Shown: in pieces, positions 5,223 to 53,901 of the stretch
Numbering within the stretch: position 1 is the stretch's first letter
Layout: each line of letters starts with the position of its first letter
Virus record (IMG/VR): IMGVR_UViG_2718218131_000011
Coordinates: 1-64,000 of that record
Length of the DNA: 64,000 bases
DNA from: a virus
Lineage: Duplodnaviria; Heunggongvirae; Uroviricota; Caudoviricetes
Direction: 5' to 3' (one strand)
Made by a program: the position numbers and the translations under genes
Notes under the pieces: model-generated
Databases searched by the model: none
The model's input: only the letters and a program-made list of their open reading frames with translations
Told to the model about the DNA's origin: nothing

Positions 5223-5255
5223 CGTGCTTTATTTTCCGTTTTCTGAGACGACCCC
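5218..5255. repeat. 38-bp terminal inverted repeat of Tn21-family transposon
   Basis: CTTAGCGTGCTTTATTTTCCGTTTTCTGAGACGACCCC is the reverse complement of the Tn21 IR GGGGTCGTCTCAGAAAACGGAAAATAAAGCACGCTAAG. Confidence 0.85.
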
Positions 5256-31680: not shown

Positions 31681-34600
31681 TATGCAAGCCTCACAATATA
31701 ATTAAATGCGATGTTTTTAACGGTGTTTTCCGCGTTACCAGCAGCATTAACGGTGATGGTATGTCCATGTGAACCAATCGCAACAGAGTGCGTATGAGCG
31801 CCAATACCAACTGTATGTGCATGCGCCCCTGCACTTGCAGCAGTGCCTGATACTGAGTGGGTGTGTGCACCAGAAGAAGGCACTGTTCCATTCCCCACGA
31901 CCGTGCCACTTGATGAACCATCAAGCCAGTCGAAATTCATACCTCCACTGTTTGGTCTCCTTAATGGAACGGTATGAGTATGTGCGCCAGCACTATTTGC
32001 AGTACCAGATACATTGTGGGTATGTGCACCTGTGTTATTCGTTGGTTTAGTACCGTAATCAAACGACGATGTGGTTTTCGTCCCCAAATCCGTACTGGAT
32101 GCGCTGGCGCTGTGGGTGTGCGATTTAATGCCGTCCTGTTCCTGAGACAATACGGCACGACCACTGGCAGGTTTGCCCTTAATCGTCCAGCCACGCATAT
32201 CAGGGATCACGCCTGACGGATAAGCGGCTGCAAGTTTCGGGTAAGCAGATTTGTCAAAAGTCTGCCCCTGCATTAGGGCATAACCAGACGGAACGGTATC
32301 TGATGGCCACGGGATTGGTGCGCCGACTGGGTAGCTTTCTGGTGGAAGATTTTTCGAGGTATAAACTTCTGCCCAGTCTTCTTCAAAACCATAACCGTCT
32401 CTTGAAGAACGGTAGAACAGACCACCATTTCTGTAATGCGCCTTCATCTGCAATGTCCGGCAACTTCCGACTCCGGTATAGAAGTTAACCAGAATATAGC
32501 TGTCGCCAGAGCGGGTGACATTGTAAGCGCCTGATTCGGCATTCCAGGGAACGCCACCATCCGCATCGGCATATGTATCCGTTGCCCTTCTGGCAAAAGC
32601 AGCCACATGCGCGGCGGTTAAAGTGATATCAGTAGAACCATCAAATGGAACACCGGATATTTTTCTTGCAGTCTGAAGTTTTGTAGCAGTTGCAGCATTA
32701 CCGTTCAAACTACCATTGATGCCGCCAGTAACATTGAGTCCATTACCGATCGTAACAGCACCATTGGCATTGTTAATGATAAGCGGCCTTAACCTATTAT
32801 AGGTTCCTAGGCTGTTACCCGAATCGGTCAACATGAAATATGTGTTTGAACCATCGTTTCGGATAAAGAATCCGTAGTTTCCGTAGGCAATGCGCAGACC
32901 ATTCGCCGATTTGGAAATAATCTCGCCAGCAGCAGTTAATCCGCCAGTTAACGCTCCTCCAGATAGTGGTAAAGCTCCGACATCAGCCGCAGTAGGCTTG
33001 TTTTTAGTGTTATACGCTCTGCGCCATCCTGGTGAATAGCTCGTCCCGTTAAACACATAGACAAACTCCGCATTAGTGAGTGCGCCAGAGACACCTGTCG
33101 TTGTTGCCGTTGTTATACGAATCGTATAATTGTTTGAGCTACTGCCGTTATTAAATACCTCAATAACTGCGCCAGCCAGTGGAATAATGCCGCATCCTGT
33201 TTCGCTGTCTGGTATGGATGCACTATTTGCATACGCCCAGGCACAACGCGCTATCCATGCCTTTGCATTAAAAGCACCATTATCTCGTAGCAGAGTCACT
33301 AATTGCTCTGTTGTTATTGAAGCTCCATTATCACCTGTTACAAGCCAACCAGTAGGAGATGCCGGGCAACCAATATTTGCTGGTGACAGTGAAATATTCG
33401 CAGAACCGTCAAATGAAACCCCATTAATGGTACGCGCTGTTAGCAATTTGGTAGCCGTAGCTGCATTACCGGTTGTGTTCTGGTTACCAGCAATGTTTAC
33501 ACCCGGCAGATTGATATTGGCGGAGCCATCGAATGATACGCCGCCTATTGTGCGTGCTGTTTGCAGTTTTGTTGCAGTTGCAGCATTGCCAGTAGTGCTC
33601 TGATTACCTGTTTTATTCACACCTGGCAGGTCGATGTTTGCGGTACCATTAAATGAAACGCCACCAATGGTTCTTGCCGTTTGTAATTTCGTGGCAGACG
33701 CCGCATTTCCTGTTGTGTTCTGGTTGCCCGTTGTATTTACGCCCGGTATGGAGTCTTTCGATGTATAGACCTGTGCCCACTCAGACCATGCCGCATCTGT
33801 GTTATCTCTTCGGGAGCGAATGAAAACTGGCGCATGTGCACCGCTCGTACCACTCCAGCCAATAAGCAACTCGCCCTCACCAGCAGCACTCGCACCTTTC
33901 ATGTGCAATACGTTGCCATACGTGGTCGGGTAGCTATTGTTGTACGCCTCGTACATTTGAATGCCAGCAGTGCCTTGAGTAGAGCCGCTTAACGCCGTAA
34001 CTCGGCCACGAGATACCAATGTATTAATGTTGATATCGCCTGAGCCATCAAACTTAACACCGTTGATGTTTCTTGCCGTCGCAAGTTTTGTCGCGGTAGC
34101 AGCATTCCCCGTGGTGTTCTGGTTACCTGTTGTATTTACACCTGGAAGATTGATATTGGCCGAGCCATCAAATGCCACACCGCCAATCGTGCGTGCTGTT
34201 TTCAATTTCGTCGCGGTGTCGGCGTTCCCTGTCAGCGCCCCGGTGATCCCGCCGTTGAAAGTCTGGCGCGCACTCCATGTGTTAGCCGTGCTCAACAGGG
34301 GGATCTTTTCACCGCTGGTACCGAGTTCTCTTAAACCAAGGTATTGGATAACGGCCAGTGTGCTTGTTTTAGCCAGAATATCGCGACCGACTGACGTTAA
34401 ATCAGTCTGCGCTACCGTATCCTTACCAGTGAAATAAGGCAGTTTGTTTGCACCAGTCGCAAGGGCAGCGAGCGCGGTTAAAGTTGCATCCAGAGGCTGT
34501 TTGCCTGCCAGCGCATTTGTCATTGTTGTCGCAAAGTTCGGGTCATTGCCCAGTGCTGCTGCAAGCTCATTCAGAGTATCAAGAGCTTCAGGTGATGAGC

Positions 34601-35699
34601 CGACCAATGCAGAGATAGCAGCTCTTACATAAGCGGTCGTAGCAATCTGCGTGTTATTCGTACCCTGTGCAGCGGTAGGCGCAGTAGGTATTCCCGTTAA
34701 TGCAGGACTTGCTAAAGGAGCTTTAAGAGCCAGAGCATTGTTGATAGTTGTGCTGAAATTCGGGTCGTTATTGATCGCAGCAGCTATTTCTTTAAGCGTA
34801 TCCAGTGTGCCAGGTGCACCGTTGATAAGTGCCGTTATAGCTGCCTTAACAAAGGCTGTATTTGCGATCTGCGTGCTGTTTGTACCTTGCGCTGCCGTCG
34901 GCGCGGTTGGCGTTCCTGTCAGACTCGGGCTTTCTATTGGCGCTTTGGTATCAGCCAGCTCTTTTACAGACTTAACGGCTTTAGGGGTAGCCGCCATTGT
35001 TTCGCTGTCGCTGTTAGTTGCGCTACTGAGCTGAACTAATCCCTTTTGTGTTGTGCTTGCATCCTGCGCCGTATACTTGCTTTTAGCCAGATCGTAGGCT
35101 TTTTTAACTGCCAGCGAACTCGCAGCAACATCACTTCTGGTACTGGTTACAGAGTCTGAAATATCAATGCCGATCGTGCGGTTGATACGCTTGGATGTAT
35201 CAATCATCTCCTGGGTAATGGCAGATACACCAGCAGGGATATTCACCGTACAAACAAGCAGCTCCCCATCTCCTAACTGATATGAATCGGTATAGGTTCT
35301 GGAAACAAATTCAGCCGCATGAATATGTGACGCGGTATTCACCTGATAGGTATCTTCTCCAAGGAGGTATCTTCCCTTCAGCACAATTGCATATTTCTTG
35401 CCTGCACTAAGTGCAAGAGAAATATCCTTACGTTGCTGAATAGTTACCTGGTAGAATTCACCAATATCCACCGACGCCGCGCCTGCGGTTTTATCACCAT
35501 CCACTGAGGTGATTAACAGGTTCATCCCACCGCCAGGCTTAGGTAAGAAACCGGCATAAAATCCCGGGTCAACAATCCCCCTGAATTTTCGGTTTAGCGC
35601 GGCTGACAGATATGGTTCGTGGTATTGCACATCAGCCACCAGAGCCAACGACTCGGGTGATGGGTAAGTAACCGATGTGACAACTGTAACGTCATTCAT
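31680..35699 (-). CDS. Tail fibre protein (S-like), non-invertible
   Basis: About 1340 aa from [10 protein letters not shown]; internal phage tail-fibre repeats ([26 protein letters not shown]) and C-terminal His-rich GAHTH repeats. Confidence 0.85.
33400..34270. repeat. Imperfect tandem repeats of about 120 bp inside the tail fibre gene
   Basis: Three units at about 33400-33759 and two at about 34039-34270, visible as repeated peptides in both the sense and antisense ORF tracks. Confidence 0.6.
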
Positions 35700-35710
35700 C
35701 AAGCATATCC

Positions 35711-36145
35711 TTATGCTGTAGTCGTGTTTATGGCCATAACTGCGGTATATGTTTTGCCCACATACAGCGAGTCTTCCTGGACACAAATAATGGCGATTGG
35801 CTTGTTCTCGTTATCCAGAACAACCAGAGTGTTGAATGGGTAGTTTTTCCCTTCCTGCAACTGGCTTTGATCAAGGTCCATTCGGACAGTTATTATCCCG
35901 CCTGAGTAGGTTGGGACGAGGTTGATGGTGCAAAATTGACTGGTCAGTTCTGCCAGATCGAAAGCCTTTGGCAGTTCTCCAATCTCATAAGTGCCATCTC
36001 CTTTCTTAGTAACCAGTGAACTGGTACCGAAAACGGCCTTGCTGATTAAAAATCGAGAGCCTTTGTTAATGGACGATTCAGCGCGCCGCTGATAGTAATA
36101 GTCCAACAACTGACTCTTATAGAGGTTTGTTGAGACGTCAGACAT
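35711..36145 (-). CDS. Tail fibre structural protein (P1 R-like)
   Basis: 144-aa ORF directly upstream of the tail fibre gene on the same strand. Confidence 0.5.
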
Positions 36146-36223
36146 GATTTTCCCTAATCAATGTTGTGAAGCCTCATTGTAAGAGAAGTAACTTGTCACC
36201 CCGCCCTGCGGACGGGGTGATTG

Positions 36224-37063
36224 TCAGGCGTCGCTATCCAGCAACAAATCATCTGCGCGTGTGCGATCAAACGTAGGTGTCGCTTTCACAATAGTGCCAC
36301 CAGGCGTTGCGGTGATCGGGGCGCTAATCGACGTAACTCCAGTAAGCGAAGTTGTATCCGAAGTTTCAAACCAGCAGAATGCTTTTTCGGTATCAGAAAT
36401 CTCGTTCAAAGTGATCATGTCGGCCTGTTCATTTACAACAACCGACAAATAGAGCGTAAGCCCATCAAACACTATATGCAGTGGCAGTAAAGGCTTTACG
36501 AACTGATTAAACTTTCTGAGAATTTCTTCTGTAATTGCGGACTGATCTATCGTGCCAGTAATCCCCATTGTCCGGGCCAGGTCGTTTATGGGAATACTGA
36601 TCATCCCTCTGGAAGTCAGAAACATCTCGCCGAATGTGCCGCCGGTTATCTCCAGTGTGCTTTCTGGTATTAGAACCGTGCCATAGGGATGACGCTCAAG
36701 GTCCACCGGTGCATATATCGGATCCCATAAAACAGAAATACCGTTAAATTCGCGGTAAATTGTCTGGTTTATAGGGCGTTCAGTCCCCTTAAAGTGAATC
36801 TCATCAAGACGCTGTTGTAACAACATCGGAACGGAAGATGAGTTCGACGTTCTGATAGTAAAGAACTGGCCAAGTTCATTTGTCCTGGTCTCCAGATCCT
36901 CCTTGCTCATGGAAAAAATAGACTTCCGGTTGGTAATTCGCTCCAACCATGGGTCAACAAAGGTATCCATCATTGACTGAACCAAATCAGCCAATGATTT
37001 ATAGAGCAATGCCTTTTGCTTAGCTGATGTAAGCCGGTTATTAAACCAGGAACGCTGCATCAC
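36224..37063 (-). CDS. Baseplate/tail structural protein (P1 gp16-like position)
   Basis: 279-aa ORF in the tail module. Confidence 0.45.
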   Translation of the reverse strand: MMQRSWFNNRLTSAKQKALLYKSLADLVQSMMDTFVDPWLERITNRKSIFSMSKEDLETRTNELGQFFTIRTSNSSSVPMLLQQRLDEIHFKGTERPINQTIYREFNGISVLWDPIYAPVDLERHPYGTVLIPESTLEITGGTFGEMFLTSRGMISIPINDLARTMGITGTIDQSAITEEILRKFNQFVKPLLPLHIVFDGLTLYLSVVVNEQADMITLNEISDTEKAFCWFETSDTTSLTGVTSISAPITATPGGTIVKATPTFDRTRADDLLLDSDA

Positions 37064-38493
37064 TCCTCCTCATACGAAATATTAAAGGTGGAGTTTTCTG
37101 TATCCAGATAAACGAAATCGTAAAAGCCGTTGGACTCATTCCACTCGACAAATTCCAGATAAAAGTCGCGGAAATAACCCAGCGTTTCGATAAATGCCCA
37201 AACGTCTTTTTTCTTGATTAGGATGTACTTGCCGACACGGTTCGGATCAAAGAAAGTTGAGTCACGCCCAAATTTTGTTTCCAGTGCCGACTTCAGCTCA
37301 TCAGTCACGTTCTCAATGGTCAGGCTTGCCGATATCCGCCCGGTGATGGTGATCTTAAAGGGTAGTTTTCTGACCTCTTTATACGAGAATTTCTTGTTCA
37401 ACTCATTCGGCACCTTCTTAAAGGCAGCCAGGATCATTTCTTCAAGCTCTGACTGGCTTTTGTTTGGATGCCATCCTGAAATAAATATCTTATTGATATT
37501 CCGGACATTATAAGCACCATCTAATTTCTCTTGCTGGCCTTCGCCCCATGCCTTTACCCAGGACAGTCCCGGGATGTTACGCACCAGAAAATACGTATAG
37601 TCCCCGCCCCATACGACCTGATCATCATAGGCAAGGTAATATTGTGCACGATTACGTGTGATCTCCGTTGTTTCGGCATCGGTACCTGCGGTTATGGGTG
37701 TCGTTGTCTTAACTGAAATCAAATTAGCTAAATTAGCCGCAGAATCGACAGGCGTCAGATTTTGGCCAGCAACCAAGGTTATATCTCCGTTGGTGCACCA
37801 TACCTTAAGTGTAATGGTCGAGCCTTCTGGCGGTATTTGCCCAATTAGCCCATCACCGAATCGAACCCCCAACTGCTCGGATGGTTTATAAAACTCAACG
37901 TAGACCTGGCTTTTACTACCGGCTAACCGGAACATAGTGCTGGAAGACCACTGCGTGGTCTTACCATCGGTCGTCACGAATACTTCCAGCTTATAGCAGA
38001 CAGCAGTGAGAGCCTTTGATAACACGACTTCCAGAAATTCTTTGGCTGCCGTAACGGTATATGTCACCTCCTGGATTTCCAACTGTGCCACTTCTACCGT
38101 ACCGGTGCCGTCAACCAACCTGCATACATCCATAGTCATGTAAGGGTACTGGTCGTCAGATATTAAAGGCATGTTTTTGGGGATTACCGCTGGGGCATCT
38201 TCACTTGTGGCGGTGATCTCAATCATCCCCGATGACGGTGTTGGCTTGGTACCAACGTAACTATTCGTTTCTGCCGCTGCCAAGATAGAGGAACGCCGCG
38301 TCGCGGTCGATATAAAGCCTTCAGCCAGCGCCGCATCGGCATACTGAAAGCACCTGTAGACAATCTGGGTAATAAACAATGTCAGCATCGAGACAAATTG
38401 AGAGCCGACAAACTTCGACCAGAATGAATCTTTCTCGACAAGCTCTTCAAACTCTGCACGAATACTGTCTTTAGTCGGTGTTGTTTTACTCAT
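37060..38493 (-). CDS. Baseplate protein (BplA-like position)
   Basis: 477-aa ORF overlapping its neighbours by 4 bp in an operon. Confidence 0.45.
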   Translation of the reverse strand: MSKTTPTKDSIRAEFEELVEKDSFWSKFVGSQFVSMLTLFITQIVYRCFQYADAALAEGFISTATRRSSILAAAETNSYVGTKPTPSSGMIEITATSEDAPAVIPKNMPLISDDQYPYMTMDVCRLVDGTGTVEVAQLEIQEVTYTVTAAKEFLEVVLSKALTAVCYKLEVFVTTDGKTTQWSSSTMFRLAGSKSQVYVEFYKPSEQLGVRFGDGLIGQIPPEGSTITLKVWCTNGDITLVAGQNLTPVDSAANLANLISVKTTTPITAGTDAETTEITRNRAQYYLAYDDQVVWGGDYTYFLVRNIPGLSWVKAWGEGQQEKLDGAYNVRNINKIFISGWHPNKSQSELEEMILAAFKKVPNELNKKFSYKEVRKLPFKITITGRISASLTIENVTDELKSALETKFGRDSTFFDPNRVGKYILIKKKDVWAFIETLGYFRDFYLEFVEWNESNGFYDFVYLDTENSTFNISYEEE

Positions 38494-38849
38494 AGCACCA
38501 CGTCCTGTGTGATAGTTATATCCCTGATACGAATGGATATTTTCAACTTATCAAAAGCATCTCCCTCGGCTACTGACAAGCCAGAAATCGGTATGTCAGA
38601 TAAATCTACCGTCAGTTTTTGCAACAGCATTGCCTCAACCGCAATTTGAACATGCGACAAGTTGGTCGGTTCGTGTTTAAACTGCGGTAAAACATTGCCC
38701 CATGACGGATCTCCGTATACCTCACCCTGATAAGTGTTTAGCCACTCATATAAACGAGCGCCCCAGGCCTCCTCCTGGGACTCATACGTTTTTACGCCGG
38801 ATAACTCCAGCGTCAGCAAAGGATCAATTTCGTTATTGTTGGCCATCAA
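38490..38849 (-). CDS. Small structural protein
   Basis: 119-aa ORF between sit and the baseplate gene. Confidence 0.4.
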   Translation of the reverse strand: MMANNNEIDPLLTLELSGVKTYESQEEAWGARLYEWLNTYQGEVYGDPSWGNVLPQFKHEPTNLSHVQIAVEAMLLQKLTVDLSDIPISGLSVAEGDAFDKLKISIRIRDITITQDVVL

Positions 38850-41800
38850 TCAACTCTCGCGTAGTCATTCATCAACGGATCATCAATTGACAGTGGTACC
38901 GTGCGCATAACGCCCGGCTGAGGCGTGCTGACCTTTACGACAGTTCCCTGGCCTTTCGCCGAGTCTTTGGTGTGCTCTTCAATCCTGGCAAGTAATGAGG
39001 TCATCTGCGCAAACAGCCGCTTCGTTTCACCATCAAGTGAAACGGTATTATCAGCCAACTGCATTGTCGGCTTGGCACCGGAACCACCAAGGTCACTAAT
39101 AACCTGTCCGTCTATCTGCATACGACCGGTTGGTTGCTGCAAATCGTTGGCGGCAGTCGTCACCTGGGACGTGGAGGCTGGTTCAGGCGCATTATTTTTC
39201 CGCATCCCCGGCGAGTTGCGGAGTTTATCGAATAGTCCATCAATCCCCATTTGTGCGCCGAGTTGGTCAAAGTAACTTGAGTTGCTGGTCACCGGACGCG
39301 CCTCTTCAACTGGCATCGGAGTATCAACATACACATTGCCAGCTGCTGTTGCGGTCCCCTTCCCTCGTGCACGTTCTTCGAGCGTTCCCTGAACGACTTC
39401 CCGACGCATACCCCGGCCATTCATGAATTTGTTGACCAGATCGTTAACGCCAACAGCATTGCCGATTTTGTCTACCAGACCGCCTTTCTCAAACGGGCTA
39501 TCACCAGGGGTAAACGCCAGGCCAGTAGACTGATCGATAACAGCGTTATCAGGCAGTGGTCCCCTCACTCCATATTGCGCCCCACCCTGTGCTCCTGCTC
39601 CAGGTGTATAGATTTCACCACCTAAATAGCGAGCACGATGAGTATTGACCTTGATCGCGTACTCACGGTTTTCTTTCGATAAGTCACCTGTGCCTTTTTT
39701 CCACTTATTGATAGTGCCAAACCCAGCGTTATATGCAGTGATGGCCTCGTTTAAGTCTCCATTGGCTTGCTTCAGATACTTGCTCATGAGAAGAGCCGCA
39801 GCTTCTGCCGATTTCACAGGATCAAACGATTCACCTTCAGCTAAGCCAGTCTCTTCACGAGCAATCCCCGTGAACTGAAACATTCCCAGAGCACCGGTTT
39901 GGGATTTTGCATACGGATTACCACCAGATTCAGTTGCAGCAATCGCGTAAAGAGTGCCTTCTGGAAGACCATATTTATTCTCTAGTTCAGCAAAATACGG
40001 AGCCAACTTATCGAGATTTGCCTTACCTTCAGATCCAAGACTTCCGACTTTTACATCCAAGCGGCCATTGTTGTAGGTATCCGCAGCTTTCTGAATGTCA
40101 TTCCTGGTGCCAGTGGTATTAAGCGACGATGATGACGAGCTATTTTGACCAATAGCTTTATCAATTTTCTGCAACGCGCTATTGCCCGTTTCTGCGGCAT
40201 TTGCATTGATAATCTGATTCGCAGTTTCTTTAACTGTTTTATTGCTATCTTTCGCCGTGTCCAGTGCCGCATTTATCACGCGGGTAACAATATTAGTCTG
40301 TTTGGCATCGGATTCAGTTTTAGAATCAGATGTCTCCTGGTGGCTATTAACCGGAGCTTTTAACTCTGGAGCGATTTCTTTCGCATTAGCCTCGCTATTA
40401 ACCGGAGCTTTTAACTCTGGAGCGATTTCTTTCGCATTAGCCTCGCCGATCGGATTGGGTATTTTTGATACAATCATTGCCGCAGGGGTATTTTTAACGG
40501 CATCAACCGCTGCATCTAATGCTTTACCAGGTAAATTTTTAACCCCATCCCAAATATTACCAGCCGCCTCTTTAATGTGTTTCCCTGGGTTCTTAATGAA
40601 ATCAATTGCACTATCAATTGCATCACTGAAAACCTGTTTCAGGTTATCAACAGTAAAGAAGTCTTTGATGGCATCCAGCTTTTCAAGCAGCTTATTAGAT
40701 GTATCGCTAAACCATGCTGAAACAGCATCACCAATCTTTGCTGTGTAATCTTCGAACTTGGTAGAAATGGTGTCGCCAAGGTTAGAAATATATGTTTCTA
40801 AGTTGGTAATCCCACTATCAATGGCCTGGGCAATACTTTCCGTCGAAAATGATTGCAACATATTGCCGATATCCTCAAATCCAAGTGATTTGAGAACCTC
40901 ACCAATGGCGCTGCTAATACCAGATACCAGTCCCCCCATATCAAGAACATTGGCTAACGTATAAGCGGCTTTTTGCTGGAATGATGGATCTTGTCCTGAT
41001 TTAAGCCCAAACGCTCGACGTTGCGCTTCTGTATCATTCCAACCGGTTACCGCATCATAAATACCTCCAGCCACTGTGCCGACTAAGGGAATTGCGCGTA
41101 ACGCCCCTTTACCAACTGCCTTTAATCCAAGTTTACCTGCTGCCCGGGCAGCCAAATCTCCACCTTCATGGGCGATAGTCTTCTTGCCACCACCGCGTAG
41201 CATTCCTACAAGTTTCTTTGCCCCCAGAGCGCCAAAAGCGAGTGCTCCAGCTTTTTTCAGCATGCCACGCCCCATTAACAACGACGCGACGCCACCGGCC
41301 CCCTTCCCTAACAGGCTAAATAGTTTGGACAGCAAGCCGCCCTTCTTTTTCCCGGTGTTTTTGGCTATCTGATCAAGGGCGCTGAGAATCTTGTCATTGC
41401 CCTCTTTAATTTCGCTGGTCTGCTCCTGAAGTTCCTGAACTGTCCGTTTTTGGGTGTTAACCTGAACGACATCGGCACTATTTTGCGATTTACGCCTAAA
41501 AAAACCTTTTCTACGGCTGTTATCGTCATTGCCACAAATCACATCGGCAATAGACTTTCTGGCACCATTAAGCGATCCACCAACTTCTTTTGATATCCCG
41601 CCAAGCTCCTTCCCTGCTGCCCACAATGGACCAGCAACGGCATAACCTAACGCATCAACGGCACGAGTCTCTGAAGGGTTACCTATGCCTTCAGCTACTT
41701 TTGACAGTTTTTTTAATAAACCTGATTCAGCATTTAGACGCTCATCATCCTCTTTGCGCCTGGCCTTTTCAGCACGTTCAGCACGGGCATCTTCCGCTGC

Positions 41801-42586
41801 GGCCTTACTCCCTGACTTTCCAATAAAACGACCACGCGCATCGCGTTGGTTTTGGCTTTTTTGCGCACCGCCTTTTTGATCGAACATTTCGCGAGCGTGT
41901 TCGGCTGCTTCGGTCCGTTGTGCCTTTATATCCTCTGGTATAGCCTTCCTGCGTCGTTTTTTACCCTTTGGTGTAGTTGATTTGGCCTGCTGTTCCTGTT
42001 GAGCAATGCCCTCCTGAACTACACGAGAAACGTCCCCTAAATTAAGCCGTTTCATTGCGTCAACAATAGGGTCTACTGATGGCGCATTGGCCACAAAGTC
42101 TGGCCGGGAATTTTCGATTGTTCGATTTAATGCCGACACACTGCGAGATACTGGGTCAACCGTTGCAACGCGTTCCCCTTTCAAATCACGAGCGAGTTTG
42201 ACCGTTTCTAACCGCTGTGCTTTAACATCCTCTGTTATTGCCTCTCTTCGTCTATTTGGGGGATTGTGCGCTGTTGGTGCAGCCTGCTGTGCACGGTTAG
42301 TGACTTTGTCCTCCCGTATACGAGAAACGTCCCCTAAATTAAGCCGTTTTATTGCGTCAACAATAGGGTCCACTGATGGCGCATTGGTCACAAAGTCAGG
42401 ACGTGAATTTTCGATTGTGCGATTTAATGCCGACACACTGCGAGAGACAGGATCAACAGTTGCAACTCGTTCCCCTTTCAAATCTTCAACAGCTTCCCGA
42501 ATACCTGCAAGCTCTTCCAGCTCTTTCGCGCTGGCGGTTTCAACTGTCCTTATAACATCGTCAATATTGGCGTTTTTTCTTTCCAT
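38846..42586 (-). CDS. sit: Sit-like structural injection transglycosylase / tape-measure-like protein
   Basis: 1246 aa with a lytic transglycosylase core (GALGMFQFTGIAREETG...AYNAGFGTINKW) and long Gly/Ala-rich and coiled-coil regions. Confidence 0.8.
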   Translation of the reverse strand: MERKNANIDDVIRTVETASAKELEELAGIREAVEDLKGERVATVDPVSRSVSALNRTIENSRPDFVTNAPSVDPIVDAIKRLNLGDVSRIREDKVTNRAQQAAPTAHNPPNRRREAITEDVKAQRLETVKLARDLKGERVATVDPVSRSVSALNRTIENSRPDFVANAPSVDPIVDAMKRLNLGDVSRVVQEGIAQQEQQAKSTTPKGKKRRRKAIPEDIKAQRTEAAEHAREMFDQKGGAQKSQNQRDARGRFIGKSGSKAAAEDARAERAEKARRKEDDERLNAESGLLKKLSKVAEGIGNPSETRAVDALGYAVAGPLWAAGKELGGISKEVGGSLNGARKSIADVICGNDDNSRRKGFFRRKSQNSADVVQVNTQKRTVQELQEQTSEIKEGNDKILSALDQIAKNTGKKKGGLLSKLFSLLGKGAGGVASLLMGRGMLKKAGALAFGALGAKKLVGMLRGGGKKTIAHEGGDLAARAAGKLGLKAVGKGALRAIPLVGTVAGGIYDAVTGWNDTEAQRRAFGLKSGQDPSFQQKAAYTLANVLDMGGLVSGISSAIGEVLKSLGFEDIGNMLQSFSTESIAQAIDSGITNLETYISNLGDTISTKFEDYTAKIGDAVSAWFSDTSNKLLEKLDAIKDFFTVDNLKQVFSDAIDSAIDFIKNPGKHIKEAAGNIWDGVKNLPGKALDAAVDAVKNTPAAMIVSKIPNPIGEANAKEIAPELKAPVNSEANAKEIAPELKAPVNSHQETSDSKTESDAKQTNIVTRVINAALDTAKDSNKTVKETANQIINANAAETGNSALQKIDKAIGQNSSSSSSLNTTGTRNDIQKAADTYNNGRLDVKVGSLGSEGKANLDKLAPYFAELENKYGLPEGTLYAIAATESGGNPYAKSQTGALGMFQFTGIAREETGLAEGESFDPVKSAEAAALLMSKYLKQANGDLNEAITAYNAGFGTINKWKKGTGDLSKENREYAIKVNTHRARYLGGEIYTPGAGAQGGAQYGVRGPLPDNAVIDQSTGLAFTPGDSPFEKGGLVDKIGNAVGVNDLVNKFMNGRGMRREVVQGTLEERARGKGTATAAGNVYVDTPMPVEEARPVTSNSSYFDQLGAQMGIDGLFDKLRNSPGMRKNNAPEPASTSQVTTAANDLQQPTGRMQIDGQVISDLGGSGAKPTMQLADNTVSLDGETKRLFAQMTSLLARIEEHTKDSAKGQGTVVKVSTPQPGVMRTVPLSIDDPLMNDYARVD
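40343..40444. repeat. Perfect 51-bp tandem direct repeat (two copies) inside sit
   Basis: GCTATTAACCGGAGCTTTTAACTCTGGAGCGATTTCTTTCGCATTAGCCTC repeated head to tail; in frame, encoding EANAKEIAPELKAPVNS twice. Confidence 0.8.
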
Positions 42587-42667
42587 GATCTTATCGCCTA
42601 CCGTTTCGGTTTAAGTTTTTCTTCCAGTTTCTCCAACAGGAAAAACGCATAGGATTCAGTAAGCCTT

Positions 42668-43549
42668 TCAGCGTCCTGAATCGGTATACCCCCATACAAA
42701 ACCAGGTTGGACACTAAGGTCTGATAGCTTTTCAATCCCCACCTGTGGAATGAAGTCGGTAGCCCGAAAGGGCACCCACAGACGGGTATATGCACCCTCT
42801 GTGGACTCCTTTTTATCCTGATTTGGGCATTTATGCGGCGGGAGACGAAGACGCATTTCACCTTTATCGATGTAGCACGGTAAACCATGTTCGAGCTTTT
42901 CATGAGCCAGTCGGATGTGTGCCGCCAGCTTCATAAATTCAGTATCAATGGCCATCCGTTTAATCGTTTCATAACGACGCTCAGCCTGATCTTCACGAGT
43001 ACCGCTAACATCGTTATAAAGCTCACACTGATAAGCGAATTCCCAAAAACGCAAATCAACGATCGCTTCTTTGAATTCCGCGTCGTCTTCAGGTGGCAAT
43101 GCTGCACGGCGCATCTCCAGCATTTCCATTGCCCAACCATTAAGCGGCACGATACGCCATTGATAAGGTACTCCCTCTACAGACACCTCAATATCGTCAA
43201 TGAAAGGTTCCACTTCCAGGACCTGGATATCTTCAGCCAGAGCATTCATATCGCAATCGTAATAATGCTCTTTACCGCAATGTTTACAGGTGTAGGTGAA
43301 TGTCTCAACCGGTGTTTCACGGGAGCCGGTAAATATCCACCATAACGCGGTAATCCGGTCCTGCGCCGTCCATGTCAGGGGATCATGTTTCGCGGGTTCA
43401 GCCAGCAAGGCTTTTAAATACGCCGTTGTCTGTTGTTCTTGTTCCTCCGGTGTTATCGAGTTGAAACGCATCGCATCAGCAATATTTGGCTGACGGAACT
43501 GGATCAATTCAGTTGGCCGCGATGGTAGCGGGAAAAGAGGTAAAAGCAT
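42668..43549 (-). CDS. Hypothetical protein (PmgB-like position)
   Basis: 293-aa ORF downstream of sit. Confidence 0.4.
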   Translation of the reverse strand: MLLPLFPLPSRPTELIQFRQPNIADAMRFNSITPEEQEQQTTAYLKALLAEPAKHDPLTWTAQDRITALWWIFTGSRETPVETFTYTCKHCGKEHYYDCDMNALAEDIQVLEVEPFIDDIEVSVEGVPYQWRIVPLNGWAMEMLEMRRAALPPEDDAEFKEAIVDLRFWEFAYQCELYNDVSGTREDQAERRYETIKRMAIDTEFMKLAAHIRLAHEKLEHGLPCYIDKGEMRLRLPPHKCPNQDKKESTEGAYTRLWVPFRATDFIPQVGIEKLSDLSVQPGFVWGYTDSGR

Positions 43550-43563
43550 CCTTGCTCCTTAAT

Positions 43564-44175
43564 TCAAAGAGAAAAGCTAAAGCCCAGAAGGGAAGCCAAA
43601 GAACTTGAGGATTGGTTAAACGTGCTGTGCAATGCGAAGGTCATTGGGAATGACTTAAATTCCGTAACCTGATCCCGCGCATAGGTGACATCGCCGGTAG
43701 TGACCGGAAATACAGTCATCTCATTTTCCAGTTTGGTTAAGCCGGAAGACAACAACCGATAAATACGCACATTGAGCAAATATTTAGACGGTATATTCCC
43801 GGTACCGTCTGGATTAATCACCCGACTTTTTGCCGTCTTAAACCAGTCCAAAACGAGGCCATCAACGGTATCCCTGACCATCATTGTTATCTGCCCAGGC
43901 GAACGCTCCGTTGGTTGAAGGATATTCCCTCCGCCGATTTTAATCGTTTCATATTCGATGCTGTAATCGTGGTAGGTAATATCTTTGGCAAAGAAGTCTG
44001 CCCCCTCCAGTCCATCAACTTCGACAGAGAACTGCCATCCTTGCGCGAACAGCATTTTGTTCATGATGATTGACGTCAGCTTACCAACTTCCCGCTCACC
44101 AACGCCGGAGCCAAATAATGTCGTCGTTAATGCCGAAGATACATAAGACTTTACTGAAGCAACATTAAGCCCCAT
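43564..44175 (-). CDS. Putative tail structural protein
   Basis: 203-aa ORF in the tail module. Confidence 0.4.
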   Translation of the reverse strand: MGLNVASVKSYVSSALTTTLFGSGVGEREVGKLTSIIMNKMLFAQGWQFSVEVDGLEGADFFAKDITYHDYSIEYETIKIGGGNILQPTERSPGQITMMVRDTVDGLVLDWFKTAKSRVINPDGTGNIPSKYLLNVRIYRLLSSGLTKLENEMTVFPVTTGDVTYARDQVTEFKSFPMTFALHSTFNQSSSSLASLLGFSFSL

Positions 44176-46195: not shown

Positions 46196-46379
46196 GTATT
46201 TTTAAGTCGCGAATGCTATCTTTTCGCATCATATTGACCTTTTAATCGTTCAGGCTTATAGTTCCGCCGTCGTAGCAAATTCTGCGACCGGGTTTAGCAG
46301 CCTGAATACTTACGCGGACAACCGCAGATTTCCGATATTGCGGTATTTTTGTGTCCGTAAACCACGTTACGCCCGAATT

Positions 46380-46460
46380 ATGGTGGGGCGTGATGGGGAG
46401 GCTTCGGCCTGCTGGTTTCGTAAGTGCCAGTCTGCTAACCCCGTCACGTCCTGCCACCTG
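46380..46460 (+). ncRNA. Putative c4-like antisense immunity RNA
   Basis: Structured GC-rich segment (GGTGG...CCACC) between the operator and icd at the position of P1 c4; boundaries approximate. Confidence 0.3.
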
Positions 46461-46507
46461 TTTAGCAGCGGGTCGCAGGTTGTTTATCAACTTACGAGGC
46501 CGTAACT

Positions 46508-47854: not shown

Positions 47855-47923
47855 CGTTTTCTAAGTGCAAAGAATCACCATTTCGAGCTGGTGATTGAAG
47901 GTTGATGCAAATTTGGAGAAAAA

Positions 47924-48724
47924 ATGCAACAAACATTCAATGCGGATATGAATATATCAAACCTTCATCAAAATGTCGATCCTTCAACCACCCTGCCTGT
48001 TATTTGTGGTGTTGAAATTACGACCGACCGCGCTGGCCGTTACAACCTTAATGCTCTACACAGAGCGAGCGGACTCGGTGCCCATAAAGCGCCAGCTCAA
48101 TGGCTAAGAACGCTGTCAGCCAAACAGCTCATCGAAGAGCTTGAAAAAGAAACTATGCAGAATTGCATAGTTTCGTTCGAAGGCCGTGGCGGCGGCACTT
48201 TTGCCCATGAATTGCTCGCAGTGGAGTACGCTGGTTGGATTTCTCCCGCGTTTCGGCTGAAGGTAAACCAGACATTTATCGACTATCGAGCTGGAAGATT
48301 ACAACCTGCTATTCCGAAGAGCCTCCCAGAAGCTCTCCGTTTGGCTGCTGACCTGGCAGAGCAAAAGCAACGGCTGGAGCAAAAAATGCTGATGGATGCA
48401 CCTAAAGTCGAATTCGCCGAACGCGTTGCTACCGCCAGCGGGGTTCTAATCGGCAACTATGCCAAAGTGCTCGGCCTGGGCCAAAACTATCTCTTCACCT
48501 GGTTGCGTGATAACGGAATTCTGATCGCAACCGGTGAACGCAGAAACGTCCCCAAACAAGAATACATATCCCGTGGGTATTTCACCCTTAAAGAAACCGT
48601 GATCGATACAAGCAATGGAAGCAGGATTTCTTTCACGACTCGTATAACCGGCAAAGGTCAGCAGTGGCTGATGAAGCGATTGCTTGATGCTGGTGTGCTG
48701 GTACCTGTCGCGGCAACGCGCTAA
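47924..48724 (+). CDS. kilA: KilA-like protein
   Basis: 266 aa, the size I recall for P1 KilA; directly upstream of repL; C-terminal half similar to the Ant C-terminus. Confidence 0.7.
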   Translation: MQQTFNADMNISNLHQNVDPSTTLPVICGVEITTDRAGRYNLNALHRASGLGAHKAPAQWLRTLSAKQLIEELEKETMQNCIVSFEGRGGGTFAHELLAVEYAGWISPAFRLKVNQTFIDYRAGRLQPAIPKSLPEALRLAADLAEQKQRLEQKMLMDAPKVEFAERVATASGVLIGNYAKVLGLGQNYLFTWLRDNGILIATGERRNVPKQEYISRGYFTLKETVIDTSNGSRISFTTRITGKGQQWLMKRLLDAGVLVPVAATR

Positions 48725-48753
48725 CAGACGTAGTAAGAACCACCAGTATTGTA

Positions 48754-49599
48754 ATGCTGGCTAAAGTCACTTTCCTGAGCTGTATAACGATGAGCGATTT
48801 TACTTTTTCCGGCTATGAATTGGCCTGCTTTGTAACACACTCCGGTCTATCCCGTAGCGCCGGGCATATCCTGTCGCAATGTGCAAATCTCGCGGCAACA
48901 ACCAGTGAATACTTCATTCACAAGCCTCACCGCCTGATCGCGGCAGAAACTGGTTATAGCCAATCAACCGTCGTTCGTGCATTCCGTGAAGCTGTAAACA
49001 AAGGAATTCTGTCTGTAGAGATTGTTATCGGCGATCACCGTGAACGTCGCGCTAACCTGTACCGGTTTACGCCATCCTTTTTGGCCTTCGCACAACAAGC
49101 CAAAAATGCGCTGATTGAAAGCAAATTAAAGATCTCTTCAGCGGCAACCAAGGTTAAAGCTGTTCTCGCTAAGACATTGGCTTTATTTAATTTTTTATCC
49201 ACACCCCCATGTCAAAATGATACCCCCTCCCCCTGTCAGGATGACGTGGCAATAAAGAATAAGAAGTCACAAGTTAAAAAAACAAAAAGATCAGTTTCCG
49301 GCGGTGCCGGAACGACCAGACTCAAAAAATTGACTTCATGGATCGCTGAGGCAAAAGCAAAGGCTGACAATCTGCGGTTATCCAAAAAACGCGCTCAAAA
49401 ACATGAGTTCAAGCAGAAAGTAGAGGCGGCAGCGCGGAAATATGCTTACCTGAAGAACAAGCGTTCTCCTGATATTGGCGGGGTATCAAACTTCGATAAT
49501 CTGCCGCATTGCATGACGGTAAACGAAGCTCTTAATGCGGTTTTAGCCAAAAATAAAGATAACGAACAATGGGGTATACCGGCAGGATTCAGAGGGTGA
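48754..49599 (+). CDS. repL: Lytic replication protein RepL (contains oriL)
   Basis: 281 aa, the size I recall for P1 RepL; downstream of kilA under the same operator. Confidence 0.8.
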   Translation: MLAKVTFLSCITMSDFTFSGYELACFVTHSGLSRSAGHILSQCANLAATTSEYFIHKPHRLIAAETGYSQSTVVRAFREAVNKGILSVEIVIGDHRERRANLYRFTPSFLAFAQQAKNALIESKLKISSAATKVKAVLAKTLALFNFLSTPPCQNDTPSPCQDDVAIKNKKSQVKKTKRSVSGGAGTTRLKKLTSWIAEAKAKADNLRLSKKRAQKHEFKQKVEAAARKYAYLKNKRSPDIGGVSNFDNLPHCMTVNEALNAVLAKNKDNEQWGIPAGFRG

Positions 49600-49649
49600 T
49601 AGATTGCTCTAATCTGGAGTCACCTGGCGTTTTCAGTTTGAGGTCGGAG

Positions 49650-49895
49650 ATGCAATCTGATTTTTTACAGTTAGCGATCGCTTTTGCAGGATATGTTTGT
49701 ATTGGCTTCTGTGTATACATGATCAGCCGAAAAATGCTTGTCGATATCGACCGCAAAGAACAAGCAGAGGAGATCTTAGTATGGATTTTCTTTGGCGTGG
49801 TCTGGCCATTAGGGATCATGTTTGCTGCAACATTTCTTCTGATGTGGATATTCACCCTTCCAGGTGATTTCTATAGAAAAAAAGCCAGACATTGA
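49650..49895 (+). CDS. Small membrane protein (rlfA position)
   Basis: ORF with two hydrophobic helices (LAIAFAGYVCIGFCVYMI, VWPLGIMFAATFLLMWIF); start uncertain. Confidence 0.35.
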   Translation: MQSDFLQLAIAFAGYVCIGFCVYMISRKMLVDIDRKEQAEEILVWIFFGVVWPLGIMFAATFLLMWIFTLPGDFYRKKARH

Positions 49896-50018
49896 TACAA
49901 TCGTTGCGGGTGCTTGAGGCTATCTGCTTCAGGCATTACCCGAAAAGCAGATAGAAGAAAGCCCCAGATAACATTACGCGTCCTGCAAGACGCTTAACAT
50001 TAATCTGAGGCCATATCT

Positions 50019-50225
50019 ATGCTTAGCATACGTAGATTAGCCTCTTACCGACCAAAAGGTCAAGGAGAAGCAGGCTATGAAGCAGCAAAAAGCGATGTTA
50101 ATCGCTCTGATCGTCATCTGTTTAACCGTCATTGTGACGGCACTGGTAACGAGGAAAGACCTCTGCGAGGTACGAATCCGAACCAGCCAGACGGAGGTCA
50201 CTGTCTTCACAGCCTACGAATCTGA
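50019..50225 (+). CDS. mok-like reading frame overlapping hok
   Basis: 68-aa ORF overlapping the hok CDS in a different frame, as in hok/mok/sok loci. Confidence 0.35.
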   Translation: MLSIRRLASYRPKGQGEAGYEAAKSDVNRSDRHLFNRHCDGTGNEERPLRGTNPNQPDGGHCLHSLRI

Positions 50226-50232
50226 AAGGTAA
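50077..50232 (+). CDS. hok: Hok/Gef-family type I toxin
   Basis: 51-aa translation MKQQKAMLIALIVICLTVIVTALVTRKDLCEVRIRTSQTEVTVFTAYESER closely parallels Hok ([40 protein letters not shown], recalled); below the ORF-track size cutoff. Confidence 0.8.
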   Translation: MKQQKAMLIALIVICLTVIVTALVTRKDLCEVRIRTSQTEVTVFTAYESER

Positions 50233-50304
50233 GAGACCTGGCGGGGAGAGATCCCCGTCACTCTTCGTGTGTCAGGTATCCTCAATGCACCCTTTCCTCT
50301 CCAA

Positions 50305-50330
50305 ATAAAAAAGCTCCCGAAGGAGCTTTA
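50305..50330. terminator. Bidirectional rho-independent terminator
   Basis: AAAAAA-AGCTCC-CGAA-GGAGCT-TT between the convergent hok and tail tube-like genes. Confidence 0.6.
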
Positions 50331-50348
50331 AAATACAAGGGATGACTC

Positions 50349-50858
50349 TTAATCCCACTCAATCCAGTTGTAGACGATACGAAGTGACGGGCGCACAGCG
50401 GCAGTCACATCTTCGGTACTAAAGTCGATTGCATCACTGTAGATTTTGCAGTCCAACATTTCAATTGTTGTAGCAGCTTTTGTCACAGCGTTAACCCCGG
50501 AAGATTTGGATTCAGGGGTCGCAGCCATCGTGATATCAACATAGTCCTTCGCCGCAATGCGATCTTTAATGAACTGAAGAATATCGCCTTCGATAGTCTC
50601 CACGCACTGGACCTGGATTTCCCCAGAGTTTCGAATTGGACCGTGCTGGTTGAACTTCACACCATTCGGACCATAGTCCTCCACATCCTCGCGGGTCATT
50701 TCAGGAATTTGCGACGTGCGAACCAGTACGCTGATATCTTCATGGCCTGCAAAAGTGAGCTGGAATTCAGAAGATACCAGTCGTTCGCCTTTGGCCGCGT
50801 TGGCAGTATAGCGGCCCTTAATAAATTTACGGTTTCCCTTAGTGTTATTGTGCCCCAT
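50349..50858 (-). CDS. Tail tube-like protein
   Basis: 169-aa ORF with a C-terminal LRIVYNWIEWD resembling the T4 gp19 tube C-terminus (recalled); in the tail/head cluster. Confidence 0.45.
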   Translation of the reverse strand: MGHNNTKGNRKFIKGRYTANAAKGERLVSSEFQLTFAGHEDISVLVRTSQIPEMTREDVEDYGPNGVKFNQHGPIRNSGEIQVQCVETIEGDILQFIKDRIAAKDYVDITMAATPESKSSGVNAVTKAATTIEMLDCKIYSDAIDFSTEDVTAAVRPSLRIVYNWIEWD

Positions 50859-50869
50859 ATAAAATCCTT

Positions 50870-51451
50870 TTACTGGAACGCCCGAACAATATCGGAGCTG
50901 TTATATATCGAAGAACCGGTCAACTGGAGGTTGACGGTGTTTTTCAGGAAATGCCCATTGCTGTCCCTGGGCGCATCGAGATCGAAACTTATGTCCTGGA
51001 TAGCGACATCAATGATGTTGATCCGGCGACCAATGTTTAGCGTCACACGCTCCGGGATTCGACCACCAATGCTGGCATCTTTAAGTTCCGGGCTAATCAT
51101 CGCTGACAATGCGGCGATAGCTCCTGAAACCTCCGTGAATGGGTCAAACAAAGCGATGAAAGTTACAGGCAGCGTGAAAGTCGGCGGTGTTCCCCCCTCC
51201 CAAACCATTAAGCTGTTCCAACGGGCCACCGACGTTGTTTCAGTACCAACCTGCGCAAAACCACTGAAAGCACCAGCAACAGACCCCATGGACATACCGG
51301 TAAACGGCGCTTCCCAATTCTGGGCCATGTTCATTGCTGCCCCCTGGCTGATATATCCGGTAACCTGGTACTGAGAGTTCGTTAAAGTAACTTTCAGAAA
51401 TGGCGATACACCGTCAGCCTGGCTGTAAACCCCATAAGGAATAGGTGCCAT
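50870..51451 (-). CDS. Virion structural protein
   Basis: 193-aa ORF in the structural operon. Confidence 0.4.
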   Translation of the reverse strand: MAPIPYGVYSQADGVSPFLKVTLTNSQYQVTGYISQGAAMNMAQNWEAPFTGMSMGSVAGAFSGFAQVGTETTSVARWNSLMVWEGGTPPTFTLPVTFIALFDPFTEVSGAIAALSAMISPELKDASIGGRIPERVTLNIGRRINIIDVAIQDISFDLDAPRDSNGHFLKNTVNLQLTGSSIYNSSDIVRAFQ

Positions 51452-51486
51452 TCAAGTTAAAGGCCGGAGTTCTCCGGCCTCCTCCT

Positions 51487-52302
51487 TTAGCCAAGGCGCT
51501 TACGGCGCAGTTTCATTGACTTTTTGCGGGCAAGTTTTGCCGCGCCGGTCTGGGCTTTTCGACGCGCTTTTTTCAGCGCCGATTTTTGAGCCGCAGTCAG
51601 ACGTTTTTTACGCAGGCGTTTACGGATGAGTTTGATCTCACCGTTACGAACAACCTTCTTAAATGCTTCAGTCAGCATTTCATCAGAAGTGCCAGCAACA
51701 ACAAACGCCGCTTCCAGTTCGTCGCGGTCGTCGCTATCTAAACCAGCGATAGAGGCACCAACATCAGCAGCTGCGTCGTCGTCTTCATCGTCAGCCAGTG
51801 CTTCGATCAGGTCATCATCTACACCGCATGCTGCGAGGAAGTCAGCAACATTTGCCCATGCTTCGTTATAGGCATCGTCCTGTTCTTCTGTAACTTCGGA
51901 GTCGTCGTCATCAGAGATACCAGCGATAGCCTGAACGAAACCATCAAGGGAGTCGAAAGTCAGATCACCGCTATCAGCCCAGGCGAAAACGGCGTCGGCC
52001 GCATCACTCAACGCATTCTGCATAGCACTTCGATTTGCGGCTTCCAGAATCATCTGGTGCGCCTGTTCGACGGTCCATTCTTTACCGTCTTTCCCTTCCA
52101 GGATTTGCTCAGGAGCCGGGGCAGATGGAACGTTATCGTAAGTCTGTGCCGCCGGTTCCTGATTATTATTAATAACCGGATCTGTTGGCGGTTCGGCGCT
52201 TGCTCGGGCAGACTCCATCAGCTGCACAGGATCAGAGTTCAAAGCGAAACGAGACAGTCCATTCCCCAAAAATGCCCCGGATTGAAAAAAGTTTTTGCTC
52301 AT
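51487..52302 (-). CDS. Acidic structural or scaffold-like protein with basic C-terminus
   Basis: 271 aa with an Asp/Glu-rich centre and Lys/Arg-rich tail. Confidence 0.4.
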   Translation of the reverse strand: MSKNFFQSGAFLGNGLSRFALNSDPVQLMESARASAEPPTDPVINNNQEPAAQTYDNVPSAPAPEQILEGKDGKEWTVEQAHQMILEAANRSAMQNALSDAADAVFAWADSGDLTFDSLDGFVQAIAGISDDDDSEVTEEQDDAYNEAWANVADFLAACGVDDDLIEALADDEDDDAAADVGASIAGLDSDDRDELEAAFVVAGTSDEMLTEAFKKVVRNGEIKLIRKRLRKKRLTAAQKSALKKARRKAQTGAAKLARKKSMKLRRKRLG

Positions 52303-52311: not shown

Positions 52312-53901
52312 TTACTTAATAAGCAGCGGTACGCCCTGGATACGACGGGCTACGCCAGTCGGGCAGCAGGCCCAGACTACTTCCCATTTATCGAATTCCG
52401 CCTGCGTAACTTTCAGCACATACGGTTCTGTACCGTCAGCATCAGGATCACGAGGAGCCACCAGAGCGCCGGAGGCGACAAAGCGATCTAAAAGTTTGGT
52501 CATCCCTTTAGTCAGGCCAGCCGCAGTAATACCGTCCGGGCTATGCTTCATCTGTCGGGCTAACTGGACAAAGAAACGGCTGATTGCATTCATCAGGGAT
52601 GGGACGTGCTGGAAGTGCAGATAGTTATCCTGCGTGCAGCAAGTTAAAGCATCGTCGATGATCATCTGGCCAGAAGTACCTACAGATACTTTATTGAGTC
52701 GGCCCTTGACCATAGCTTCTTCGTCCGGGGTGTCTTCCGGATACAGCGGTTGAAGTGATGCACGAGCAATGACGGCACGTTCTTCACCAGCCGGTGAGTA
52801 ATGCCAACCGCCGACATCGGAGTTTTTCTTGACGCCACGAGCTTTCGCTGCATACGCCGCGCCAGACAGACCGAAGACCACGCGGGATTGGGTCCATTTG
52901 TCTTTGCAGGAGAACGGGAAATGATAGACAGCACAGCTTACATAATCGGTACCAAGTAAACCGGTATCTTCAACAGCAGAGATCGCTTCCGTGTACGTCA
53001 ATGTCGGTTTGACATCAAAGAAGCCATCAATCAAGCGATCAGAACAGATATTACCTAACGCAGTGATCGCCGCATTGTCATAGCAACCCAGGCCGAGAAC
53101 AGCGGTGTACATGTACGGCGCATTGTTCAGCACTTTCACCGCACGCAGGTAAGCAGCAGTGGAAATGTTCGACTGATCGCCGTTGGTACCGCCAGTGAAC
53201 GCCAGCGATTTTTTATTTGTTACTTTCGCCGTCGAAATCAGCTCTTCATTAACAACCGCGCGCAGATATTTAGAACGGGCTTCCAGAGCCGTAGGCAGAT
53301 AACACAAGCGGCCCATGTCATCTTTCGCTTCTTCCGCCAAAGACACAGTGTGTGTCTCCAGGGTCGTTACCACGCCGAGCGAAGTCGTCTGGGTCAGTTT
53401 CAGGAGGAAGCGTTCATTACCTGCGCTGTCCGCTGTTGCCGTTTCGATGGTTAACTCACGGGTAGGTGAAATACACGGATCACCATCATCAACGTAGATA
53501 GCAAAGGCTTCGCCGCTATCAAGTTCAATTTCAGAACCGTATGGCAACGCACTGTAAGCCGGTTCGCCTGATTCATCGAACATAATAATCGGGAACTTCG
53601 CATCATCCGGAACAGCACGAACAATATAACCTGACGTTTGCTGAATAGCTTCGTATACATGGCGAATTGGTTCGAACTGTGAGCCGGAAGACGGCTTCAG
53701 CGGTTCGCCGAGAACATCTTCGTAATTGGACTCAGTAACCGCAAGAACAGTAAACGGCTTGCCACGCGCAAATACGCCAATACCAGCCCACAAGCTGCTA
53801 TTTAATGCAACACCGGTAGATAACGTCGCATCGGCATTGATCGGGCTAACCGCAACGCCGGATGCATTACCTAATGACTGTTGAATTGAATATTGAGACA
53901 T
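52312..53901 (-). CDS. Contractile tail sheath protein (P1 gp22-like)
   Basis: 529-aa ORF adjacent to the capsid gene; size and position consistent with the P1 sheath gene. Confidence 0.55.
   Translation of the reverse strand: MSQYSIQQSLGNASGVAVSPINADATLSTGVALNSSLWAGIGVFARGKPFTVLAVTESNYEDVLGEPLKPSSGSQFEPIRHVYEAIQQTSGYIVRAVPDDAKFPIIMFDESGEPAYSALPYGSEIELDSGEAFAIYVDDGDPCISPTRELTIETATADSAGNERFLLKLTQTTSLGVVTTLETHTVSLAEEAKDDMGRLCYLPTALEARSKYLRAVVNEELISTAKVTNKKSLAFTGGTNGDQSNISTAAYLRAVKVLNNAPYMYTAVLGLGCYDNAAITALGNICSDRLIDGFFDVKPTLTYTEAISAVEDTGLLGTDYVSCAVYHFPFSCKDKWTQSRVVFGLSGAAYAAKARGVKKNSDVGGWHYSPAGEERAVIARASLQPLYPEDTPDEEAMVKGRLNKVSVGTSGQMIIDDALTCCTQDNYLHFQHVPSLMNAISRFFVQLARQMKHSPDGITAAGLTKGMTKLLDRFVASGALVAPRDPDADGTEPYVLKVTQAEFDKWEVVWACCPTGVARRIQGVPLLIK

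Follow-up and report, generated by a model that had tools for sequence, protein, structure and literature searches.

What is encoded in the short interval between repL and bplB of a P1-like phage-plasmid, and what would it do for its carrier? The window, i.e., the whole stretch of 64,000 nucleotides that was analyzed, had been predicted to contain there, at 49900-50340, a type I toxin-antitoxin locus of the hok/mok/sok type. These limits describe the locus well, and the full unit including its promoter extends from ca. 49874 to 50335. Judging from the sequence, we hold, with a probability of about 0.85, that 49874-50335 is an intact hok/mok/sok locus of the HokD/HokW subtype that is carried as cargo by a P1-like (IncY) phage-plasmid and would act by post-segregational killing, as the R1 system does. 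The predicted type is borne out by the Pfam HOK_GEF match of the toxin, the Rfam sok match, homology to hokW/mokW/sokW of phage 933W and the tac/fbi fold of the mRNA.

A P1-like phage-plasmid (Punavirus, IncY-type) is the source of the window, which covers only a portion of that element. The standard ImmI region of P1 is found at 46256-46461 on the plus strand, where Rfam models detect the C4 antisense RNA (RF01695, 70.8 bits) and the a1/b1 target sites (RF03163, 56.2 bits), which confirms the P1-like identity. The genes kilA (47924-48724, with KilA-N and ANT domains) and repL (48754-49599) are followed by an 81-aa hydrophobic ORF (49650-49895) and the hok locus, and then, on the minus strand, by bplB (50349-50858), pmgG (50870-51451), gene 21 (51487-52302) and the sheath gene (52312-53901), each with 95-99% DNA identity to annotated P1 or P1-like records. 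Plasmid pET6.1-IncY (NZ_CP043218.1) is 100% identical to the window over 49560-50360 and largely collinear with it. Since positions 1-5256 and 32609-44059 differ from this otherwise near-identical plasmid, the window comes from a P1-like element other than pET6.1-IncY. At 1-5256, identity to the Tn3-family element of pET6.1-IncY is only 77-79%. At 32609-44059, large intact ORFs (1368, 1246 and 477 aa) occupy the minus strand of the window; the corresponding place in pET6.1-IncY shows an IS100 insertion or deletion. Elsewhere in the window, group II intron domains are detected at 29714-29983 on the plus strand (Rfam RF02001, D1-D4-3, 96.9 bits; RF01998, D1-D4-1, 46.8 bits), and this DNA is also found in pET6.1-IncY. 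No ORF of reverse-transcriptase size occurs near the match among the ORFs of the window. The feature resembles a group II intron that is partial or lacks an ORF, with lysis genes on one side and a serine-acetyltransferase-like ORF (30536-31099) on the other.

The toxin gene hok occupies 50077-50232 on the plus strand, with the Shine-Dalgarno sequence AAGGAG at 50062-50067. Hok/Gef toxins are recognized as proteins of ca. 50 aa with an N-terminal transmembrane helix and a conserved cysteine, and the 51-aa product carries a Hok/Gef domain that spans the entire Pfam profile (PF01848 HOK_GEF, positions 1-42 of 42; E = 1.3e-20, 73 bits, cutoff 22). A further match is to PHROG 251, "MokW-like host killing" (4e-31). 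Of the 51 residues, 47 agree with the majority HokD of the homologues; identity to Hok of plasmid R1 is ca. 40%. The NCBIfam Hok models stayed under their cutoffs (46.5 bits for the Hok subfamily against a cutoff of 73 bits); despite this score, PGAP names the identical protein HokD. As had been predicted, a second frame in another register overlaps hok, and both are present in the list of ORFs. This frame, mok (modulation of killing), comprises 68 codons at 50019-50225 on the plus strand, has a Shine-Dalgarno sequence, GAGG, at 50007-50010 and matches PHROG 37205, which was built from Mok-like ORFs, at 5e-21; in phage 933W, mokW is annotated at the equivalent position. Pfam and NCBIfam gave no match for the Mok frame, and PADLOC gave none for Hok, Mok or the 81-aa ORF. 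A 57-aa minus-strand ORF antisense to hok (50037-50210) was judged spurious.

An Rfam search for the Sok antisense RNA on the minus strand upstream of hok had been suggested as a check. The sok family (RF01794) is indeed matched over the full model (1-157) at 114.9 bits, the gathering score being 59 (E = 2e-25), but the match lies on the plus strand, at 49908-50082, whereas on the minus strand sok reaches only 21 bits. The plus-strand match is the hok leader complementary to Sok, which by itself does not demonstrate an antisense transcript. Rfam candidates in the hok region that were far under threshold (CRISPR-DR46, ceN48, sbrA and the 21-bit minus-strand sok) were dismissed as chance matches. 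When the coordinates of the annotated sokW of 933W are carried over by alignment, they define a predicted Sok of ca. 71 nt on the minus strand, from 50027 to 49957. Its predicted fold (-29.1 kcal/mol, z -4.8) starts with a 5′ tail of 15 unpaired nucleotides, continues with a long terminator hairpin (50012 to 49960) and closes with the U-rich tail GGGGCUUUCUUCU, and the RNA is complementary to both the Shine-Dalgarno sequence and the start codon of mok. A putative sok promoter can be placed at 50034-50063 on the minus strand, with a -35 element TTGACC (50063 to 50058), an 18-nt spacer and a -10 element TAATCT (50039 to 50034). The consensus promoter scan of the locus did not call it because TAATCT matches at only three of six positions. 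This candidate promoter thus appears weak by consensus and owes its placement to homology, its position being conserved relative to sokW and other hokD-type modules; we infer that Sok is transcribed.

The promoter scan did call a promoter for the hok/mok mRNA, at 49874-49901 on the plus strand, with a -35 element TAGAAA (49874-49879), a 16-nt spacer and a TG-extended -10 element TACAAT (49896-49901). The predicted +1, at ca. 49908, is the first position of the Rfam match, and conservation of the module across 63 homologues begins at the -10 box, which in most of them reads TAGAAT. In the MFE fold of the full-length mRNA (49908-50335; z -10.2), the 5′-terminal tac element GGGUGCUUGAGG (49908-49919, plus strand), which is invariant in the 63 homologues, pairs with the fbi (fold-back inhibition) box CCUCAAUGCACCC at 50280-50292, which is complementary to the mRNA 5′ end and forms the last conserved segment of the module. 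In the fold of the 3′-trimmed mRNA (49908-50268), the tac end pairs locally with 49926-49941. Only in this fold does a predicted Sok target hairpin appear at 50015-50037, with a 7-bp stem and a 9-nt loop CUUAGCAUA (50022-50030) that is complementary to the 5′ tail of Sok. The MFE fold also contains a conserved 3′-UTR hairpin directly after the hok stop codon (50239-50260). In the switch of R1 hok/sok, the mRNA is inert until it is trimmed at the 3′ end, after which it is either bound by Sok or translated. The modeled fold-back between tac and fbi, together with the refolding of the trimmed RNA, would be a switch of the type defined for hok mRNAs.

The pairing was compared across 63 distinct hokD-type modules from viral contigs and 933W. 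The hok gene is intact in all 63 homologues and the mok frame, with 68-70 codons, in 57. In the tac/fbi helix, twelve pairs persist in 99.9% of cells, with GC to GU as the sole kind of change. For the alternative fold, the figures are 97-100% of cells in the 5′ hairpin and 89.6% in the stem of the target hairpin. Projected as a whole, the structure retains pairing in 93.8% of cells compared to 36-44% with slid partners, and slid controls across both conformations are paired in 27-47%. True compensatory changes were seen in few helices, namely the 5′ hairpin, the 3′-UTR hairpin (50239-50260) and one that lies in the coding part of hok; they are few in the key helices because those are nearly invariant. 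In the 3′-UTR hairpin (helix 17), compensatory changes are joined by one-sided ones that preserve pairing, with GC replaced by AU in 11 sequences and alternation of GU, GC and AU. The fold put to the test came from the window, which biases the comparison towards it. Support from covariation is modest, and the data speak for conserved pairing potential rather than strong covariation.

The 3′ end of the locus does not follow this conserved plan. A strong terminator had been predicted for hok, and a hairpin, AAGCUCCC-GAAG-GGAGCUUU, is present at 50310-50329; it is, however, not hok's own but the bplB operon terminator of the P1 backbone, which the terminator scan called on the minus strand only. 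Its T-run is on the minus strand, while the plus strand continues with UUUAAAAU, and the hairpin lies inside the P1-homologous block that resumes at 50307. Homology to all lambdoid hok copies ends at 50292 and is followed by a 14-nt linker and then the P1 backbone. The lambdoid copies have an intrinsic terminator of their own, CCCGCTTCGGCGGGTTTTT, right after fbi, which is absent from the window module. Because the module's own terminator is missing, we propose that the hairpin at 50310-50329 probably doubles as a 3′ stem-loop or terminator for the hok mRNA. On the plus strand this substitute offers only UUU followed by AAAA, which makes the formation of the hok mRNA 3′ end, a step critical for the mechanism, uncertain. 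In the region 50293-50329, hok and the late tail operon (bplB) converge on one hairpin.

How did the locus come to lie where it does? It had been described as inserted after repL. The position is correct, but a simple insertion is not what the flanks indicate: homology to P1 extends over 47900-49613 (98.1%) and 50307-51500 (95.1%) and is interrupted only between these blocks, where the reference P1 carries rlfA-rlfB-pmgF (ca. 1.8 kb). The hok locus and the 81-aa ORF together therefore form a cassette that has replaced rlfA-rlfB-pmgF in a published hypervariable region between repL and bplB-pmgG-21-22. The replaced genes constitute one of eight highly variable regions (region 5) of P1-like phage-plasmids (PMC9603915), and Venturini et al. 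(2019) described their substitution by ORFs "including antibacterial toxin" (PMC6906374). Other cargo in the same slot includes rapA and further genes in P7, ISEc46 with an unknown gene in RCS47, and yet other genes in SJ46. The 81-aa ORF, on the plus strand, matches PHROG 3772 (5.6e-54, function unknown) and is called by PGAP; neither Pfam nor NCBIfam gave a match. It completes the replacement cassette without belonging to the toxin-antitoxin mechanism, and in P1-like plasmids it accompanies the hok module. Its 3′ end contains a terminator-like hairpin (49852-49867) that immediately precedes the promoter of hok. The left junction (49603-49619) cuts the operator Orlf (Op55) of the P1 C1 repressor, of which the first 11 bases, ATTGCTCTAAT, are kept before the sequences diverge; the left junction of RCS47 in Orlf is the same.

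Remnants of the cassette are found at 3568-3834 of RCS47 and 3008-3267 of SJ46. They match window positions 49780-50045 and comprise the 3′ end of the 81-aa ORF, the hok leader and the Sok body with the -10 element, without the sok -35 element and the mok/hok coding part. Thus, the hok cassette was once present in those lineages and was partly lost or overwritten. What is left could be an orphan antitoxin fragment.

The cassette is widespread. At least 80% of the 801-bp sequence (49560-50360) is held by 261 plasmids in PLSDB, where 507 plasmids have repL, so that about half of the sequenced P1-like plasmids (261/507) carry it. The top-listed cassette plasmids are all 88-126 kb in size, and the type non-mobilizable is assigned to 575 of 706 matching records. 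Identity is at least 99% across many P1-like plasmids from different hosts and countries, and the whole cassette is present in 234 of 5426 complete E. coli genomes. In pET6.1-IncY, phi456, vB_EcoM-Ro157c2YLVW, MH422554 and pSvP1/pTZ20_1P (MH445380/1), the region 49560-50360 is 99-100% identical and has the same repL and bplB flanks; the window shows no substantive difference from this group and is another member of it. The hok cassette thereby marks one of two or three common alleles of the repL-bplB slot. The locus is already known and routinely annotated: its gene is called hokD ("type I toxin-antitoxin system toxin", PGAP), Hok/Gef or, in MH422554, MokW. A full-text literature search for hok in P1-like elements returned no dedicated study; only Venturini et al. 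mention an "antibacterial toxin" (PMC6906374).

Modules of the hokD type in general are far more common in the host than this cassette, being present in 4746 of the 5426 complete E. coli genomes (87%) with a median of two copies, mostly on the chromosome (10159 chromosomal vs. 1014 plasmid places). Sok RNAs of these chromosomal loci might cross-neutralize the window copy. The segment that would govern this, 50022-50033, which comprises the Sok 5′ tail and target loop and lies after the mok start codon, is the most variable of the module, with about ten variants in the 63 modules; outside it, the module is 94% conserved. The window's segment differs from every variant of the chromosomal, lambdoid-prophage kind, and its 42-nt recognition variant is found in the complete E. 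coli genomes at 474 places on plasmids and at just 4 on chromosomes. Tentatively, and at somewhat less than even odds, these figures may be read as a sign that the P1-like copy is an orthogonal specificity variant, whose private Sok code would keep chromosomal Sok RNAs from neutralizing the plasmid hok; the hypervariability of the loop would then reflect diversifying selection for Sok/hok pairs that do not cross-react. If so, the private code would let the module still act as an addiction system in hosts full of near-identical toxins, and the variant would offer a simple case of near-identical type I loci that coexist without cross-talk.

The locus had also been proposed as an additional or alternative module to phd/doc, the classical addiction system of P1. 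Neither tblastn nor blastn found phd/doc in the 64-kb window, which is part of the element only. Plasmid pET6.1-IncY carries phd/doc elsewhere alongside the hok cassette, and phd and doc are among the most conserved (core) genes of P1-like phage-plasmids (PMC9603915). These data favor "additional", while "alternative" finds no support.

We propose the following course of events for the post-segregational killing that we consider the main function. Transcription would yield a stable hok mRNA starting at ca. 49908, which, as long as it is full-length, would be translationally silent through pairing of the 5′ tac with fbi. Slow trimming from the 3′ end would remove fbi, so that the 5′ end could refold locally and the target hairpin could form around the mok start. 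As long as the plasmid is present, the unstable Sok would bind the target hairpin and the mok ribosome-binding site and block mok translation; the coupled translation of hok would be shut off as well, and the duplex would be marked for cleavage. Upon plasmid loss, Sok would decay first, the membrane toxin Hok would be made and the cell would be killed. The locus would in this way constitute a second post-segregational killing module beside phd/doc. Both the toxicity of Hok and its stabilizing effect in this replicon are expected from this analysis.

The strongest competing account, which we nevertheless consider unlikely to describe the main role, is that the locus is chiefly an abortive-infection or phage-exclusion device, with stabilization secondary: a superinfecting phage would stop transcription, Sok would be depleted and Hok would be released. 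The hok/sok system of R1 reduces the propagation of T4. In addition, the closest relatives of the locus sit in lambdoid prophages rather than plasmids, as the prevalence of chromosomal places given above illustrates, and for an integrated prophage plasmid loss is not an issue. The variable regions of P1-like elements, moreover, often hold defence cargo (PMC6906374, PMC9603915). Set against this are the lack of any PADLOC match noted above and the fact that P1-like elements already have dedicated defence and restriction systems. The mechanism would be the same as that of post-segregational killing, so the two accounts are compatible and sequence cannot separate the two roles.

That the cassette is a selfish or decaying passenger without effect on its carrier seems improbable. 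Such a fate has been reported for a number of chromosomal hok loci in E. coli K-12, which have been disrupted by IS elements or truncated, and genomes of the K-12 type have kept no more of the module than its 3′ part (query positions 504-733). The remnants without hok in RCS47 and SJ46 show that the cassette is dispensable and gets lost, and the window copy lacks the native terminator. Its promoters, tac, mok, hok, fbi and Sok hairpin are nevertheless all intact, and conservation of at least 99% extends over hundreds of plasmids from different hosts and countries. A cell with an intact hok but no functional sok would not survive; that hok has been retained therefore implies a working Sok, which makes a dead relic unlikely. 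Finally, a chance ORF beside a backbone terminator, with no toxin-antitoxin system at all, has only the small size of the ORF in its favor and is refuted by the Pfam (E = 1.3e-20) and Rfam (E = 2e-25) matches and by 87-91% DNA identity to annotated hok/mok/sok loci.

Taken as a module for post-segregational killing, the hok/sok locus would be one of two unrelated systems for addiction in the element, the second being phd/doc, to judge from the closest relative; this pairing would help explain why such elements are stably maintained. P1-like phage-plasmids often carry resistance genes; the main practical value of the present analysis lies in correct annotation.

Among known systems, hokW/mokW/sokW of phage 933W and the hokD (relF)-type loci of E. 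coli lambdoid, Qin and Rac prophages are closest. They share with the window a 397-bp module from the -10 box to fbi (49896-50292) with 86-91% DNA identity (87% for 933W), as well as the mok frame, the predicted position of Sok, the tac/fbi elements and the 3′-UTR hairpin. The differences concern the carrier, a P1-like plasmid prophage here and an integrated lambdoid prophage there; the sequence upstream of the -10 box, which in the window diverges from the lambdoid copies and yields the TG-extended element; the length of Mok, 68 codons in the window and 70 in the 933W/lambdoid type; and the 12-nt Sok recognition segment, whose window variant is almost confined to plasmids. With phd/doc of P1, the classical type II module, the locus has in common the proposed role, stabilization of the plasmid prophage by post-segregational killing, but the mechanism of phd/doc, with a protein antitoxin and a Fic-type kinase toxin, is unrelated, and its location also differs. 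The experimentally defined paradigm, hok/sok (parB) of plasmid R1, differs from the window copy in nucleotide sequence, yet the Rfam family of the R1 group matches the window at the 114.9 bits reported above. The two are built alike: each has a toxin of the Hok/Gef family, a mok frame that overlaps its gene and a Sok, predicted in the window copy, that runs antisense in cis across the start of mok translation, and the predicted fold-back of tac on fbi with refolding after 3′ trimming is the same.
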